From: Pirellulales bacterium
GTDB taxonomy: Bacteria > Planctomycetota > Planctomycetia > Pirellulales > JADZDJ01
Length of the DNA stretch: 64,000 nt
NCBI GenBank assembly: GCA_963719205.1
Contig: CAVRAW010000004.1
Coordinates: 17,765-81,764, forward strand
Direction: 5' to 3'
Shown: piece after piece, positions 5,914-25,516 of the stretch
Position numbering within the stretch: position 1 is the first letter of the stretch
Layout of the letters: every line of letters starts with the position of its first letter
The notes under the pieces: generated by a model
What the model saw: only the letters and a program-made list of their open reading frames with translations
Databases searched by the model: none
What the model was told of the DNA's origin: nothing
Position numbers and translations under genes: made by a program

Positions 5914-6032
5914 GGCAACCTCCGGAGAAAAGCAGCCTGCTCCAGACAACCGACCATTTCTGTCTTGCCGCATTATAGCAATTCTGCTAGCAACCGCGGT
6001 TCGAAATTGCGCACTCTCTTTCGGGCCGCCTA

Positions 6033-8495
6033 ATGCACGACGAAGCTCCCGCCGCGCTGACCGATTTGGTAGCACGTTTGCGCTGGCCAAGCCGGAGCAA
6101 GTACGCGCCGTGCGGCCGTTGGCCCGCGGTTTGGCCCGCGGCCTGCCGCTGTTTGAATCGGTGTGGGTCGATGCGTTGGTGCAGGCGCGGTTGCTGACGC
6201 CCTATCAAGCCACGGAGATTAATGCCGGCCGCGGCGAGCAACTGCAGGTGGGGCCATATGTAATCCAGTGCGCTTACGGTGAACGGTTGGGATACGCCGA
6301 ATCGTTCGTCGCCATGCATGTCGACTCGAAACGATCGGTGCACCTGTTGGTCAAGCGCGGAGCGGATTCGACGTGCAACGAGGCCGCGTCCGCACTCAAA
6401 TCTCTGGCCGAGAAATTCGCCGCGCTAACAACCGGTCCGCTTCCGCCGCCACCTCCGAAGATGAGGCGGCAGAAGCAATCGAAACACTTGAGCTTATTCT
6501 CCGCCATTCAGGCAGCAGGCGCAGACAACCAGACGCTCTGGGCGGCCTTTGCCCGACCACAGGAATTTCGGCAGGCCAATGGGTTTCGTGGCATGGAAGA
6601 TTGCCGCCGGTGGTGGCGTTGGAAATCGTCCGGCAGATGGCTGCTGCGCTGGCGACGCTCGAAGCGGCCGGCATCACGCACGGCGACATCGCCGCATCTT
6701 CAATCATGTTGAACGAAAACGGCAACATCCAACTTGCACGCGCTGCGGTGCGAGGCGTCTTTCGACCAAACGAAAGCGAATCGCCCGAGCGGTTGCCGAT
6801 TGAAGCGTTCGACTATTTGGCTCCGGAGCGAATGCAGATCGCCTCGCGAGAGACGCGGTTAAATGCGGCCCACGACATGTATGCGTGTGGATGTTTGTGG
6901 TGGCACTTGCTCACCGGACGCACGCCGTTGGCTGGAGGCGATCACGCGGCAAAATTTCTAGCGGTGAAGGCGGGAAAAATTCCGGACGTGCGACGCTTGG
7001 CCCCCGATGTGCCGAAAATCCTGGCCGAAGTGATCGAGCGCTGCACACAGCGCAATCCGGCGCAGCGGTCGGCCTCGTTTGCCGAACTGTCACAACAACT
7101 GGGCCCCTCGACCAGCACCGGCAGGCGCCGTTTGGCCGACGTATTGGCACGCGCGGGCCGTCGCACGGCGCAGGTCAATTGGTCGTGGCGTGCGCAGGAC
7201 CGGTTTGCAGCGCGAGGCCGGGCAGTTGATGGCCACTGCGGCTTGCTTGCTGTTGCTGGCGGCCGCGACCTGGCCGCTTTGGCGCTCGCGGCATTCGCCG
7301 CCGGAGCACGGAGCGCACGCCGCAATAGCCAAAGCGTCCCAGCCTACGAAGATCGCCAAGTTAGTAGCCAATCCTGGGATTGATCCGGCTGTGCGGCAAG
7401 CAAATTATCAAGCCACCAACAGCCCGCTTGCCGAATCGACGGCGGAGCATGGTTCGGCGCACGATTCGCCAACAGCACCCCAACCTGTCGCGCTAGCGCC
7501 ACCGCGGCCCGTCATCGAACTAGACGCCGACAAGGAAATTCCGGCCGCGTCGCTGCGATTGCAACCCGGCGCCATTGTGCGCGGGAAAGGAGATCAGCGA
7601 CCGCGACTGCTCACGCCCGCCACCGGGCTGACCATCAGCGCAGACAACGTGCGGTTTGAAAACATCGATTTCCTCTGGCGCCAACGGCCCGAAGCGATCA
7701 CCACGCCTGGTCGGCAGGCGAGTCATCGATTTGCGCACCGCACACGCCGAATTTGTAGGCTGCACGTTTCAAGCGGTGGCGGCGGGATCGTTCGAATTGC
7801 CGACGGCGGTGCGACTGTCGGGCAATTCGCAGCGCAGCGCACTCGCGCCGGCAGGGCAGGTGCGGATCGAGCGCTGTGCGCTGACGAGCGTTGCCTGCGG
7901 CGTGGATTGCGCTGCGTCGCGCCGGCTGCGGTCGAAGTCTGCAACACGCTCTATCTGGGCAGCGGTTCGCTGGTGCGATTTTCTCAGCCGCGCCGCAGCG
8001 ATGCCCCGGCCTCGGTCACGCTCGACCAGATCACGCTGCGCGGTTCCACGGCCGTGATCGAAATCAACGCGCCAGACACCGTGGATGAGCTCGCGCCGCT
8101 AAGCATCACGGCCAACGGCTGCGTGCTGGCGCCGGAGGCGGGCGGACTGTTGATATTCACCGGCCGGCGAGCGACAGCATCGTTGGCGGGCAAGCTGCGC
8201 GGCATCGAATGGCTCGGAGGAGGCTCGCTGACTCCGCCCGGCACGTCGGTGGCGATTTGGCGGCATGACGATGCCACCGAAACGCTCCCCGACGACGAGT
8301 TGTCGATGGATGGGCTGGTGGCTAGCGCCGTGGATTTCGTCGGCCCCGCGACCAACGATCCAGCCAATTCGCCGCCTGAAAAAATGGTCGGCGCCAGTGC
8401 AATCCGAAGCGCCACCGGGGATCGCCGACGATGTACCCAAACTTCCCAGTAGTGAATCGGCAATCGCCAGCTCGGCAGTCGCAGAAAAAAAATAG
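6033..8495 (+). CDS. Ser/Thr protein kinase-like membrane protein (probable pseudokinase) with extracytoplasmic beta-rich domain; several indels
   Basis: LLTPYQA..G N-terminus typical of planctomycete kinases, HGDI, YLAPE, DMYACGC..LLTGRTP, TM helix, beta-rich C-terminal part. Pieced together from ORFs 5663, 6373, 7079, 7656 and 8265. Confidence 0.78.
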
Positions 8496-20265: not shown

Positions 20266-21564
20266 ATGAACATCAACCCGGTCGGCGTCATCGTCAAGAA
20301 ACGCGAGGGTGGCAAGCTCTCCACCGAAGAGATCAAGGAATTCATGGAAGGCTTCGTCGCCGGCGATGTGCCGGAGTATCAAATGGCCGCGCTGGCCATG
20401 GCCATCTATTTCAAGAGCATGGATGCCACGGAAACCGCCGCGCTCGTGGACGTCATGCTCCGCAGCGGCGCGACGCTGCAGTGGAACAAAGATTCCGGCA
20501 CGATGGTCGACAAGCATTCGACCGGCGGCATCGGCGACAAACTCTCGCTCCCATTGGCCCCGCTGTTGGCCTGTTGCGGCTTAAAAGTGCCCATGATCTC
20601 CGGCCGCGGCCTTGGCGCCACCGGCGGCACGCTCGATAAGCTCGAAGGCATCCCCGGCTTCCGCACCAACCTGTCGATGGACGAGATCAACAAAGTGGTC
20701 GCCAAAGTCGGCTGCGTGATCACCGGCGCCACCGCCGATCTGGTGCCCGCCGACCGAAAACTGTATGCCCTGCGCGATGTCAGCGGCACCGTGCCCAGCA
20801 TTCCGCTCATCTGCGCCAGCATCATGAGCAAAAAGCTGGCCGAGAACCTGCACGCCCTGGTGCTCGATGTGAAATGGGGCTCCGGCGCCTTCATGAAGAA
20901 GCAAGAAGACGCCCGCGCATTGGCCCAGGCGATGGTCAACACCGGCGCGCGGATGAACGTGAAAACCACCGCGCTCTTAACCGACATGAATCAGCCGCAC
21001 GGCCGCATGGCGGGCAACTCCGTCGAAGTGGATGAATCGGTCGCCACCCTGCGCGGCGAAGGCCCGCCCGACGTCGTCGAGCTGGTCCTCTCGCTGGGGG
21101 CCGAACTCCTGGTCTCCACCGGCCTCGACAAATCAACCGATGCCGCCAAGCAGCGCCTGCAGGGACACATCAAGTCCGGCGCGGGCTTGGAAAAATTCCG
21201 CGAAATGGTCGCGGCCCAAGGCGGCAATCTCGACACCAAGCGCACTATTGCCCCGGCTTCCGATGTGCCCTCAGAGAAGGCCGGCTACGTTACCGCGATG
21301 AATGTCGAGCAGCTAGGTATGTCGATCATCGAGCTCGGCGGCGGCCGCAAGAAACTGGGCGACAAGCTCGATCATTCCACCGGCTTGGAAATGTTGGTGC
21401 GCCTGGGAGACAAAGTCGACCGCGGCCAGCCCCTCGTGCGCATGTTCGCCCCGCCCGACAAAGCGCCACAAGCCAAAAAGATGGTGCTGGAAGCGATCAC
21501 GATTTCCGATTCGCAGCAGCCGGTGCCCAAGCTAATCGTCGAACGCATATTGCCCAAATCCTGA
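20266..21564 (+). CDS. pdp: pyrimidine-nucleoside/thymidine phosphorylase
   Basis: DKHSTGGIGDK, SGRGLGATGGTLDKLE, YALRDV.GTV.SIPLI.ASIMSKK. Confidence 0.95.
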   Translation: MNINPVGVIVKKREGGKLSTEEIKEFMEGFVAGDVPEYQMAALAMAIYFKSMDATETAALVDVMLRSGATLQWNKDSGTMVDKHSTGGIGDKLSLPLAPLLACCGLKVPMISGRGLGATGGTLDKLEGIPGFRTNLSMDEINKVVAKVGCVITGATADLVPADRKLYALRDVSGTVPSIPLICASIMSKKLAENLHALVLDVKWGSGAFMKKQEDARALAQAMVNTGARMNVKTTALLTDMNQPHGRMAGNSVEVDESVATLRGEGPPDVVELVLSLGAELLVSTGLDKSTDAAKQRLQGHIKSGAGLEKFREMVAAQGGNLDTKRTIAPASDVPSEKAGYVTAMNVEQLGMSIIELGGGRKKLGDKLDHSTGLEMLVRLGDKVDRGQPLVRMFAPPDKAPQAKKMVLEAITISDSQQPVPKLIVERILPKS

Positions 21565-21586: not shown

Positions 21587-21994
21587 ATGTCCAAACTCAC
21601 CGACCAACAGCGCAAAGATCTGGTTAAAGCGTGCTTGGACGTTCGCAAGAACGCTCACGCCCCGTACTCGAAGTTCCACGTCGGCGCCGCAATTCTTACC
21701 CAATCGGGAAAGATCATCACCGGCTGCAACATGGAGAACGCATCCTACGGCCTGACGATCTGCGCCGAACGCGGCGCCGCCTGTACCGCGATCGCGATGG
21801 GCGAAAAAAAGTGGCTTGCCATCGCCGTCTCCACGCCCGGCGGTTTTACGCCCTGCGGCGCTTGCCGGCAGGTCATCGCCGAGTTCGGCCCCGATATTCC
21901 CGTCTTGATCGTCGACGCGGATAAGCCGGACGCCGTCAAAGAAACCGACATGGAAACCCTGCTCCCCGGCCGGTTCATCTTTTCCAAAGACTAG
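21587..21994 (+). CDS. cdd: cytidine deaminase (homotetrameric type)
   Basis: APYSKFHVGAA, GCNMENASYGLTICAER, PCGACRQ. Confidence 0.96.
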   Translation: MSKLTDQQRKDLVKACLDVRKNAHAPYSKFHVGAAILTQSGKIITGCNMENASYGLTICAERGAACTAIAMGEKKWLAIAVSTPGGFTPCGACRQVIAEFGPDIPVLIVDADKPDAVKETDMETLLPGRFIFSKD

Positions 21995-22109
21995 TGGCTC
22001 GCCTAGTGGTTTGTCGGCGCACCGCAGGTTATGATCACGAAGCTAATCGTTTGTCTCGTCGCTGGCCAATCAAACTCTTCCGCTACCCATCTAACCCGCT
22101 GACGAAAAA

Positions 22110-23852
22110 ATGGAACCTCCTCCGTCCCTAGAAGTCCCAGTCGATAAGCACGACATCCCGAAGGTCACCAAGCACGTCAAGCCGATGCCTTTTGCCTGCG
22201 CCTCGGCATCCTGGTGGTGATTTTCGCCGTGGGCATCGCGGCTTACGTCTTTAAGGATCCTATCGGCCTGCGGGGGCAATCGGTGGCGGGCATCATCTTC
22301 TTCATTGGGATCGTGGGGGCGTTTTCCTCGAACCTGCGCGGTGAACTGGAACACTATTCTCTGGGGCATGGTCTTGCAGGCGGTGTTTGCCGTGTTAGTG
22401 CTGAAGGTCGATGCCGTCAGAAACGGCTTTGAGCAAATGGGCAAAGCAGTCAGCACCTTCATGGATTTCTCGGACAAGGGCGCTAAATTCGTGTTCGGCG
22501 TATTGGCCGATGCCCCAGCGATGGAAAAAACTTTCGGCCCTGGCAACGCAATTGTCTTTGCGTTCAAGGTGCTGCCGCCGATTCTGTTCATCTCGGCATT
22601 CTTCACCGTGTTGTACCACTTTGGCGTCTTGCAGTTGATCGTGCGCGGCATGGCGCTGGTCATGACATATTTGATGCGCACCAGCGGCGCCGAAACGCTC
22701 TCCGTGGCCGCCAATGTGTTCATGGGACAAACAGAGGCGCCCCTGATCATCAAGCCATACGTACCTAGCATGACAAATTCGGAATTGTTCGTGCTGATGG
22801 TAAGCGGCATGGCTCACATCTCCGGCAGTTTGATGGTCGTCTACATTGTCTTGGGCGCTAGCCCTGTGGCAGTGCTGACCGCCGTTGTGATGGCCTGTCC
22901 GGCAAGTATGTACCTGGCCAAGTTGTACTTGCCGGAAGTCAGCACCCCCATCACCGGCGGCGGCGTGCCTTACAAGAAAGAGCCTTCCCCCTACGTGAAC
23001 GCGATCGACGCTGCCGCCAGCGGGACTACAGTCGGTTTGCAATTGGCGCTGAACGTTGGCGCCATGCTGATCGTGTTCCTTGCTTTCGTGGCGATGTTCG
23101 ATGCGGCCCTGGGCGGCTTGCACCATCCGCTGCGATGGGTGGGCATCGTCGGCGACGGCAAAGAGCAAACTTTGATCATCTCCGGAACTCCAACGACTGG
23201 CAGCTACGTCGTCTCATATACCGATTCAGCAAACAAAGTCTCTCAAACGGCTCCTATTCCATTCAATGCATCCGCCGATGCTGTTCAAACCGCGCTCCGA
23301 GCATTGCCCGGCTTAAATAGCGTTAACGTCACAACCTCCGGAAAAAGTCCCGACGTTACGCAGACTATTGCGTTTACTGGTGTCGAAGGAGACCGCGTCG
23401 CACCCTTGGCCGTGACCAACACATTTGACCATGGCTCAATCAGCGAACGAATGAATCCGCCCGAGTGGCTAGAAGATATGTCGTTGGGAAAACTATTCGG
23501 CTGGATTTTTTCCCCCTTGGCATTTTTGATGGGCGTGGCCGTCGACGATGCTGGCAAAGTTGGCAAATTGCTCGGTTTCAAGCTTTCGCTCAACGAGTTC
23601 GTCGCCTTCATGAATATGACGGAATGGAAACGCACGGCCAACTTCATGTCGGAGCGTTCCTATGTGCTAGCCGCCTTCGCCCTGACCGGTTTTGCGAATT
23701 TCTCGTCGGTCGGCATTCAATTGGGCGGCATCGGATCCCTGGCCCCCAATCGCCGCGCCGATCTGGCTCGACTCGGCCTGCGAGCCTTATTCGTAGGCTT
23801 CACCACCTCGCTGTTGAACGCCGCCATCGCCGGCGTGTTTTTGCCGGCATAA
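22110..23852 (+). CDS. nupC: concentrative nucleoside transporter (NupC/CNT) with an inserted ~95-aa domain; N-terminal indels
   Basis: SGAETLSVAANVFMGQTEAPL.IKPY, NAIDAAASG...GL.LALNVGAMLI.F, K..LNEFVAF, FALTGFANFSSVGIQLGG. Confidence 0.92.
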
Positions 23853-23879
23853 GCAAGGCGGTCAGAATTCGTCGCACCC

Positions 23880-23905
23880 TTTAGCCCCGGGCTCTGCCCG
23901 GGGGT
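23880..23905 (+). repeat. TTTAGCCCCGGGC REP-like element, copy 2 (between convergent genes)
   Basis: tttagccccgggc-tct-gcccgggggt. Confidence 0.85.
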
Positions 23906-23921
23906 GGCGCAACGCGTCGCA

Positions 23922-25516
23922 TTACCTGTCGAAAACGTCGGCCCACCACGGATCGAGCTGAAACACCGGCTTGCGTGGAGTTTCCGACTGGGTGCGCGGT
24001 ATCTCCAGCGACGTAAGCTGCCGCGCCGGCTGCGCCTCGCGCTCATCCGCCAAGCGCTTCATGAAATCGGGCGAAACCCGATCCAGCACGATAATCTCGC
24101 TTTTGGCCTGGGGATCGGCCAGCGGCCGCACGATGCAAATCATCTCGGCCCCTTCCGCTTTGTCGCGCAGCGCCTCCAGAGAGGCCTGTTCACTGGCCGT
24201 CAACCGCTGGCCGCCGCCGTCCACCGCCGCTGGTTCCCGCACCGCCACCGGCTGAAGCTGCCGCACGCCATTCTCCCTCTCCCCTTCGGAGAGGGCCGGG
24301 TCGACGACTCGCCGTGGCGAGGTAAGGGTGCCCGGCTCCGCCTTCCGCCTTCTGCCTTCTGCATTTGAGTGTCCGCCTCCTGCCGCCACCTGCGCCCTGC
24401 GCCCTGCATCCTGGCCCTGCCCTGGTCCTGAAAAGCAAATGCCAACCCGTTTCGATCCAGCATCTCCTCCACCACCGACAAGTGGGAAAACTCTCCTTCG
24501 TTATCCTGCGGGTCTCCCGCGTTGCACACGCCAATCACCAATCCCTCGGGCGTGAACAGTCCGCCGCCGCTGCGCCCCTGCACCGGCTGGAAACCGATTT
24601 GCAGATTCGCCGGGCCGCCATAGCGATTGATCGACTTGATCACGGTTTCTTTGGCCGTCGCATCCTCGCCGCCGTCGCAGCCCACGCTAATGACATGGTC
24701 CCCTTTGCGAATGGCATAGCCCGCGGGCGCCAAATGGGCCACCGTCACCGGAAAATCGACCTCAATGCTCAACAAGCCCACCTCGGATTTCAAATCGTAA
24801 TCGATCAGCCGCCCCGGAACTGCCTGCGGTGCGCCGGGCCCAAACATATCGACCATGATCTGGCTATCTTTGTCGGCCTCGCGGAACATGTGGCCGCAGG
24901 TAAGGATCAGCGCTTCCCCCTGCCGCGAGTCGATGATCGTGCCGGAGCCGCAGGAAACGCCGCTATGGTCTTCGATGCGCAGTCGCACGCTGGCGCGGAT
25001 GAGCTGATCAAAAGGCGAATCATTCGCGCTGGCCGCCGCATCGAGCTCATTCTTTCCGCCGCCGATCGACCGAGACAATTTCCGTCTCAGGCCGCCCGTC
25101 GCGATCGGGCCCCGCTGGATCGGTGGCCGGAAACGGAATTGCCGCCACTTCATCCGTGGGCAATCGCGGCGCCTTGCCGGCGCCACGCCCGTCGTCCCCG
25201 GCTCGACGCCGTTGCGATGAAACATCGCCTCCAGCCGCCCGCGATCGGTGGCCCCCACCACCCGATCCACTTCCTTGCCGCCCACCAACATCACAAAACA
25301 GGGCAACCCCTGCACGCCGTACTTCTCCGCCAGCGCGTGCTCTTTGTCGACATTCACTTTTCGCACGGGAAAGCCCTGCGCGGCAAGCTGGCCGACCACC
25401 GGCTCCATCTGGCGGCAGTATCCGCACCAATCGGCGCCGAAATCCAGCAGCACCGTGTCGTTGTTAGCAGGCGTGCCCAGCGCACAGATCGCCGCCGCAA
25501 GATGCAAAAGATTCAT
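23922..25516 (-). CDS. secreted thioredoxin + trypsin-like peptidase domain protein; indels
   Basis: Signal peptide, WCGYC, GSGTII, LTCGH, QGRSGGGLF, and a C-terminal AEMICIVRP..SEIIVLD domain in another frame. Confidence 0.82.
24275..24430. repeat. CCCTCTCC/GGAGAGGG palindrome plus 7-bp arrays inside the gene linker
   Basis: ccctctcc-ccttc-ggagaggg at 24275-24295, then ccttccg ccttctg ccttctg and cctgcgc cctgcgc cctgcat. Confidence 0.65.

Follow-up and report, generated by a model that had tools for sequence, protein, structure and literature searches.

In a 64,000-nucleotide stretch of the genome of a Pirellulales bacterium (GenBank assembly GCA_963719205.1, contig CAVRAW010000004.1, positions 17,765 to 81,764; hereafter the window), a concentrative nucleoside transporter (CNT/NupC, SLC28) encoded behind a phosphorylase and a deaminase gene carries a 98-residue module that shares its fold and sequence family with domains decorating the surface of the capsid and the Dit/tail-tip cage of mycobacteriophage Bxb1. 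The domain architecture is new within a known transporter family, and the module is known from phages but uncurated. The fusion is real and rare, being confined to a few uncultured soil Pirellulales. The best overall explanation, to which we give a probability of about 0.6, is a phage-type module on a functional CNT, where it may serve as a binding or tethering accessory.

The genome containing the window (G000) comprises 3.28 Mb in 7 contigs and is 79.9% complete. It was compared with three genomes of the same genus (G001, G002 and G003). Two proteins sharing the insert recur below, namely, P0002, the orthologue in G003 (581 residues, 83% identical to the window protein), and P0003 (578 residues, 75% identical).

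An insertion at the hinge of a nucleoside transporter

The insert begins with GDGKEQTL and ends with DHGSIS; it lies in frame, preceded by '...FDAALGGLHHPLRWVGIV' and followed by 'ERMNPPEWLEDMSLGKLFGW'. A first-pass annotation, made from the DNA sequence alone, had placed it at 23163-23447, right within a few codons of the boundaries given by homologue alignment (23151-23444). When the window protein is aligned with 17 of its 120 best homologues, the segment of about 98 residues is lacking in all but the window protein itself, P0002 and P0003. Measured between two invariant anchors (P0002 D332 to L460), the intervening segment is 11-37 residues long in 113 of 116 CNT homologues, which rejects the insert as a common CNT feature, and 126-127 residues long only in these three proteins, the insert of P0003 differing in length by a single residue. 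In an alignment of P0002 to vcCNT (4pb1_A, 3tij_A), residues 58-347 correspond to chain positions 12-296 and residues 456-579 to positions 297-422; the 108 residues in between (348-455) have no counterpart and fall between positions 296 and 297, i.e. at the border of transmembrane helix 6 (TM6) and interfacial helix 3 (IH3). In the elevator architecture of vcCNT/NupC, as given in excerpts of the NupC paper (bioRxiv 10.1101/2023.02.03.527023), TM6 belongs to the scaffold, IH3 opens the second transport sub-domain, IH3, hairpin HP2, TM7 and TM8 make up the second half of the moving transport domain, and the N- and C-termini are periplasmic. Because the chain starts in the periplasm and crosses the membrane six times before the site, the TM6-IH3 loop would be periplasmic, and the insert is predicted to face this compartment. 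The alignment, the loop lengths, the topology and the AlphaFold2 model described below all agree with the earlier description of an in-frame folded domain in a short, outward-facing TM6-IH3 loop. The insert itself is acidic (pI 4.6) and Cys-free.

The sequence on both sides of the insert is that of a CNT. Pfam models Nucleos_tra2_N, Gate and Nucleos_tra2_C score 64.2, 54.0 and 207.3 bits against cut-offs of 27, 29.6 and 32.3, the last of them matching as two stretches with the insert between them. The nearest described counterparts are bacterial CNTs such as Vibrio cholerae vcCNT (PDB 3TIJ, 4PB1) and E. coli NupC. P0002 matches vcCNT with an E-value of 1e-81: GQTEAPL (HP1), NEF (HP2) and GFAN.SS (TM7) are identical in the orthologue and vcCNT, and the TM4 Val of vcCNT aligns to Leu in the orthologue. 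We take the glutamate of N-E-F in HP2 and the F..N..S residues of TM7 to be nucleoside-site residues. Residue names for the nucleoside site in HP1 and TM4 follow excerpts of the same paper (bioRxiv 10.1101/2023.02.03.527023). Relative to vcCNT, the window protein differs by the TM6/IH3 module and by an extra N-terminal tail of about 55 residues with a hydrophobic helix, the latter being common to the whole planctomycete/verrucomicrobial clade. The gene is the sole CNT copy found in G000 (genome 79.9% complete). A reading of the whole protein as a phage tail or capsid protein was rejected, since it has the domains of a CNT and is encoded in a salvage operon of the chromosome, with housekeeping genes on either side.

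Insert-bearing CNTs are rare. None was found in 400 other Planctomycetota genomes searched with a 181-residue junction-spanning query at E<=1e-25, and no CNT is present among the 150 best module carriers or among 22 JGI metagenome loci sharing the most conserved motifs of the insert. In a motif scan of the species-genome collection, the sole matches were the record of G003 and a single unrelated locus. A word-indexed search with the P0002 insert yielded only the query itself among 283 candidates and was thus uninformative. A literature search for a CNT carrying such a fusion returned nothing relevant. Thus, the earlier statement that no such CNT has been described holds for the literature and the wider databases searched. 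An intein or another self-splicing insertion was rejected as well: the first residues of the insert are G-D-G-K, the last are S-I-S and the next residue is E, so that there is neither a Cys/Ser/Thr start nor a His-Asn end, and no Hint/intein family is among its Pfam matches at E<=1. A search of the junctions for flanking repeats or a target-site duplication gave only chance-level repeats, away from the junctions.

Independent data support the insert. It occurs at the same codon in the separate assemblies of G002 and G003 and in P0003; the G003 gene is intact at 581 residues, and the G002 gene has frame breaks of its own. Among contigs from public soil sequencing runs, placed on the window at 80% likeness, one of 257 nt spans the right junction with 5 mismatches, two more, each from a different run, are internal to the insert, and others skip it, as insert-less relatives would. 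An assembly chimera, in which misassembly spliced the insert into the gene, could be suspected from the many small errors of the assembly and from the sequencing runs themselves, the best of which hold only 5-7% of the sampled words of the stretch, with none above 7%. It is effectively refuted by the shared codon position in G002, G003 and P0003, by the short-read contigs from other soils that cover the insert and span its right junction, and by the preservation of both the reading frame and the family consensus.

The features of the locus are listed in Table 1. The cytidine deaminase gene lies upstream of nupC in G001, G002 and G003 too, and synteny at the phosphorylase end of the salvage cluster is conserved in G001 and G002. 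A promoter and terminator scan detected no promoter-like site, and terminator-like sites were at the shuffled expectation.

Table 1. Genes and segments of the nupC locus in window coordinates
Feature	Coordinates	Strand	Basis
Pyrimidine-nucleoside (thymidine) phosphorylase, first gene of the nucleoside-salvage cluster	20266..21564	+	Pfam Glycos_transf_3, Glycos_trans_3N, PYNP_C
Cytidine deaminase	21587..21994	+	Pfam dCMP_cyt_deam_1, dCMP_cyt_deam_2
CNT/NupC gene, whole	22110..23852	+	
CNT/NupC gene, main open frame	22305..23852	+	
CNT gene from its ATG (22110) through the N-terminal tail to the first frameshift; same frame as the main open frame	22110..22197	+	ATG aligns with the G001, G002 and G003 starts
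CNT segment in the other frame, between the frameshifts: extra N-terminal hydrophobic helix and start of TM1	22198..22340	+	22214-frame translation matches homologues
CNT core part 1: TM1 to the end of TM6 (scaffold and first half of the transport domain)	22341..23150	+	Pfam Nucleos_tra2_N, Gate, first Nucleos_tra2_C stretch
Inserted 98-residue module of phage virion decoration type, predicted periplasmic	23151..23444	+	
CNT core part 2: IH3, HP2, TM7, TM8, stop codon	23445..23852	+	second Nucleos_tra2_C stretch

CNTs of the planctomycete/verrucomicrobial clade show further additions. All have a conserved N-terminal tail (M.PP.SLETPV...) and one extra hydrophobic helix before the vcCNT-aligned core (window 22110-22340; P0002 1-57); if this helix crosses the membrane, the N-terminus of the CNT would move to the cytoplasm. 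Other members of the clade (P0031, P0034, P0039, P0051, P0061, P0069, P0097, P0120; L084:3001-4629) carry a different addition of about 54 residues between TM1 and the next conserved block, which resembles two extra hydrophobic helices, and most of these also have long low-complexity C-terminal tails. The protein at L084 and other long CNTs were considered as insert carriers and rejected, their extra length being located elsewhere.

The module and its likely phage source

No Pfam or NCBIfam model covers the insert. A profile built from the three CNT inserts and searched against 1.84 billion representative proteins retrieved 1903 proteins with E<=1e-3, of which 485 reach E<=1e-10, well beyond what chance would give. 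In the PDB, the profile matches the 'tail tip cage, gp23' of 9d93 (9d93_Ma) with an E-value of 7.4e-16 in three tandem stretches and, weakly, the Bxb1 capsid protein. According to excerpts of a preprint, 9D93 is the Bxb1 tail. In gp23, annotated as 'tail tip cage/Dit', modules were confirmed at residues 270-322, 330-386 and 390-447. The PHROG families of tail sheath and major tail proteins are matched at E-values of 2.4e-7 and 2.3e-5, respectively, and 221 of the 227 matching cultured-phage records are from Mycobacterium phages, mostly tail sheath genes. In Bxb1, decoration domains of this type are present in gp23, which has three of them in tandem (9D93), at the C-terminal end of gp14, the major capsid protein (9D9W/9D9X), and in the connector-assembly chain 9D94_Jh; judging from the length of this chain and its record annotation, the tail tube of Bxb1 probably also carries the module. 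Whereas these domains belong to virion proteins, the module of the window is located in a loop of a cellular inner-membrane transporter. The two also differ in sequence, with an identity of only about 25%, and in extent: the copies in gp23 align to no more than the first ~65 positions of the profile, and the insert of the CNT is the 98-residue long form.

An AlphaFold2 model of the module, based on an alignment of 54 sequences, has a predicted local distance difference test score (pLDDT) of 93.5 and a predicted template-modelling score of 0.84. It consists of one conserved helix packed on about seven strands, so that the term 'beta domain' used in the first-pass annotation fits the strands and overlooks the helix. 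Foldseek E-values are weak (best 0.012), and in BFVD the major tail protein of a Microbacterium phage ranks first among the fold matches (E 4.9e-5).

The 150 best carriers fall into two classes: 74 belong to one family of proteins of about 540 residues and 76 have multiple repeats and lengths reaching 7591 residues, some of them on viral contigs and one from a Planctomycetaceae metagenome-assembled genome. Large planctomycete proteins also contain the module, as illustrated by a run of large open reading frames (ORFs) in G005, a genome of the same taxonomic family as G000 (L005:1360-3152), which encodes module copies beside an HExxH zinc-protease-like motif. Pfam ADGRF3_N was considered as a homologue of the module on account of P0265, a eukaryote-like protein of 3038 residues with 26 repeats matching at ~2-3 bits each; the relationship was not established. 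The series of weak matches in P0265 is centred on the motif INAS.EAV..LRAL and reflects either remote homology or coincidence. Matches to HisG_C and CBM_4_9, with E-values of ~0.01 in a few family members, were disregarded in characterizing the module.

The insert is most closely related to the single, long-form modules of the ~540-residue family, with 45-57% identity over 92-97 residues and the shared PD/NxTH/QT..F motif (alignment A3). Members of the family are soluble proteins with 1-7 modules. They are found in 43 IMG/VR loci, a few kb from genes for the major head protein and a virion structural protein, and all 22 JGI metagenome loci sharing the most conserved motifs of the insert belong to this family. 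Members are also present in several Pirellulales genomes. In this family, too, the module occupies a loop, in this case of a carbohydrate-binding module (CBM)-like domain, and is optional: some members in Pirellulales genomes lack it and show a clean gap in the alignment. It is therefore a loop-inserting cassette. The family (L087 and L088 on viral contigs; L131:1498-2829 in G092) has not itself been assigned to any Pfam or PHROG family and shows a weak CBM-like C-terminal part. A scan of viral contigs with P0151 alone returned nothing, whereas the alignment-based scan succeeded.

On this comparison, the donor of the insert was likely a phage. In a module tree, from which G002 was left out, the three CNT inserts form a single clade with a Shimodaira-Hasegawa-like approximate likelihood-ratio (SH-aLRT) support of 96. 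No donor copy of the module or of the ~540-residue family was found elsewhere in G000 in a module search at E<=10, a check that the first-pass annotation had proposed. Base composition also sets the insert apart, at a different level from that proposed earlier. The earlier hand count of 122 G or C in 240 nt (23161-23400) is exact, and the whole insert has a GC fraction of 0.524 versus 0.567 in the rest of the gene and 0.606 in the window; as evidence this is weaker than it was taken to be, since 19% of the windows of the same size inside the gene are as low. The signal lies in GC at third codon positions (GC3), which amounts to 51/98 in the insert versus 298/404 in the rest of the gene (Fisher p 4.8e-5). 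In three genomes the insert has a GC3 of 0.52, 0.67 and 0.64 versus 0.70-0.81 in the flanks, and in the two genomes scanned, G000 and G003, the GC3 minimum of the gene lies inside the insert.

Frame breaks, history and selection

In the assembly of the window, the first ~78 codons of nupC are broken by two frameshifts relative to G001, G002 and G003: one base is missing near 22198 and two bases are missing near 22341. Accordingly, the phrase 'otherwise intact transporter' applies to the G003 orthologue and not to this assembly. The contigs of relatives carry the letters missing at the gaps. The second gap lies within a GCGCG run, at which one relative's contig has 'GC' inserted at 22335 and G002 has an indel of its own. 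Frame-shifting gaps of 1-2 nt are found along the whole region aligned to G001, with 85 in 32.2 kb (window 1-33300; e.g. 5991-8067, 14246, 19941, 24400-24840), 19 of 45 ORF comparisons are split across frames (a count that includes spurious antisense ORFs), and one ORF of 698 residues is split into five pieces. The adjacent thioredoxin and trypsin-like peptidase gene (24200-25516, minus strand), which G003 encodes as one uninterrupted ORF, runs on in a different frame as ORF 23922-24389. Nine of 17 in-gene break points are within 12 nt of TGCGC/GCGCA versus a background of 9.5%, although the motif was picked post hoc and the p-value is therefore inflated; the pattern points to sequencing errors that recur systematically at a single motif, which may be a methylated site. 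Because of the density of gaps, the split ORFs, the split neighbouring protease gene and the G002 indel at the same run, the two N-terminal frameshifts are probably sequencing or assembly errors. Decay of the gene, in which the transporter would be a pseudogene in this strain and the insert carried along without function, would explain the two frameshifts and a stop codon in the starting frame. We consider it improbable, since frame breaks relative to G001 occur throughout the assembly, tend to lie near one motif and recur at the same run in G002, and since the remaining gene is free of stops and has a ratio of nonsynonymous to synonymous divergence (dN/dS) of 0.10.

In a CNT tree built without the insert columns, with the topology (P0003,(G000,G002,G003,G001)) and supports of 100/100 and 100/99, P0003 branches outside the genus clade, yet carries the insert. 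Because the CNT of G001 is devoid of it, the history of the insert needs two changes. The insertion arose once, in a small Pirellulales lineage. Between G000 and G002, dN/dS is 0.11 in the insert (dS 0.82) and 0.10 in the CNT core; between G000 and G003, the respective values are 0.18 (dS 1.22) and 0.10. The insert of G000 has no indels relative to that of either genome. These values indicate that the insertion is old and has been under purifying selection. The capture was called recent in the first-pass annotation, a view that has to be abandoned because the insert is common to lineages separated by a dS of 0.8-1.2 and to P0003 outside the genus clade.

Comparison of G000 with G001 reveals an additional peculiarity of the locus. 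Between these two genomes, nupC has a dS of 0.93 and a dN of 0.104, versus 0.09-0.43 and 0.005-0.026 in six other genes, and a DNA identity of 0.71-0.84 versus 0.90-0.97 in the flanks; no such excess is seen in nupC between G000 and G002. The locus (window 22000-24500; L142-L145) is a divergence island between otherwise close genomes. The simplest reading of the G001 divergence is allelic replacement by recombination, and insert-bearing and insert-less alleles would therefore both circulate. Within the genus, the module coexists with an insert-less allele and is not universal.

The same island could be the footprint of a conflict with phages. The periplasmic module might serve as a decoy, or as a block, against virion proteins bearing the same module or binding the same ligand, or as a handle exploited at DNA entry, an idea we regard as unlikely. 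Equally unlikely in our estimate is its population-level version, in which nupC alleles with and without the insert are a phage-driven polymorphism and a module captured from a Pirellulales phage, exposed in the periplasm on the sole nucleoside importer, meets incoming virion parts that have the same module or compete for its ligand, and either blocks entry at the inner membrane as a decoy or is exploited by phages as a handle. The overwhelmingly virion-associated nature of the module family, the ~540-residue proteins in several Pirellulales genomes, the 2- to 10-fold excess of divergence at nupC between G000 and G001 and the presence or absence of the insert in otherwise close genomes are all in line with such a conflict. 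However, this support is wholly circumstantial, a single recombination import without selection explains the divergence equally well, the anomaly concerns one genome pair and is absent between G000 and G002, and no copy of the module or of the ~540-residue family was found elsewhere in G000. We know of no phage of these bacteria.

Possible role of the module and implications

In the explanation that we favour, an autonomous 98-residue module has been inserted in frame where TM6 of the scaffold hands over to IH3 of the moving transport domain. Since all substrate-site motifs are intact, the protein presumably still imports nucleosides by the elevator mechanism, and the module would ride on the hinge as a periplasmic accessory, outside the translocation path. 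There it might serve as a weak binding or tethering unit for an envelope or periplasmic ligand, a part of the explanation that we propose tentatively, at somewhat less than even odds. The proposal is made by analogy, because relatives of the module decorate virions (they are found on capsids, tail tubes, sheaths and Dit proteins), where comparable domains bind cell-surface glycans. According to excerpts of the respective papers, Ig-like/carbohydrate-binding decoration domains of phage Douge bind glycans on the host cell surface (PMC13033339), CBMs occur in evolved Dit proteins, and decoration domains of lactococcal phages likewise bind cell-surface glycans (PMC6669499, PMC9128512). Like the relatives of the module, such domains are surface-exposed additions at the same places of the virion, but they belong to other fold families, and no Douge entry is among the sequence or fold matches of the module.

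Several points count against this explanation. The glycan-binding idea is an analogy to other fold classes in other phages. A low dN/dS alone does not prove function, as selection against misfolding at an essential hinge would leave the same trace. G001, the nearest relative of G000 genome-wide, has a CNT without the insert, and the module may thus be dispensable. NCBIfam TIGR00804 (nupC subfamily) matches even the intact P0002 in two stretches and below its cut-off (E 4.2e-114, 381.7 bits versus 442), plausibly because the insert splits the match. As to the donor class, the sister group of the CNT inserts in the module tree has a support of only 66. The frameshifts and the in-frame stop met from the starting frame allow for a pseudogene in this strain. 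Finally, the expectation that both junctions would be spanned holds for the right one, which is covered by a contig; no listed short-read contig spans the left junction, which is supported by three assemblies only.

The closest competitor is a tolerated passenger, i.e. a module of no benefit residing in a permissive, already lengthened loop and kept folded only because misfolding or truncation at the TM6-IH3 hinge would cripple the sole importer. We deem it rather unlikely in itself, though nearly as likely as the binding role and close behind it. The insert-less allele of G001 and the insert-less relatives in the same soils fit a passenger. So does the site, since the loop already measures 25-32 residues in the clade versus 11 in other homologues, which points to permissiveness. 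The module is also a promiscuous cassette found in many unrelated proteins, and the insert simply keeps the family consensus, with no CNT-specific conserved surface identified on it. By contrast, the dN/dS of the insert (0.11-0.18) is nearly as low as that of the core, there are no indels over a dS of ~1 in the three lineages with DNA, and P0003 differs in length by just one residue. Neutral cargo should shrink or vanish more often, yet among five clade members only the G001 allele is without the insert. On balance, we prefer the binding or tethering accessory.

A 98-residue domain tolerated and conserved at the hinge between the scaffold and the transport domain of an elevator-type carrier is a natural experiment on hinge cargo. 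The length and freedom of the linker at the CNT hinge are thought to matter, and the family includes the human drug-transporting SLC28 carriers. The site is also a ready-made place for engineering tags or sensors into CNTs. For phage biology, the transporter provides the first cellular context for a widespread, nameless virion decoration module that has no Pfam or NCBIfam entry and behaves as a loop-insertable cassette. The alleles with and without the insert and the diverged locus invite the question of phage-driven selection. In evolutionary terms, the fusion would represent a phage structural domain domesticated by a housekeeping membrane protein.

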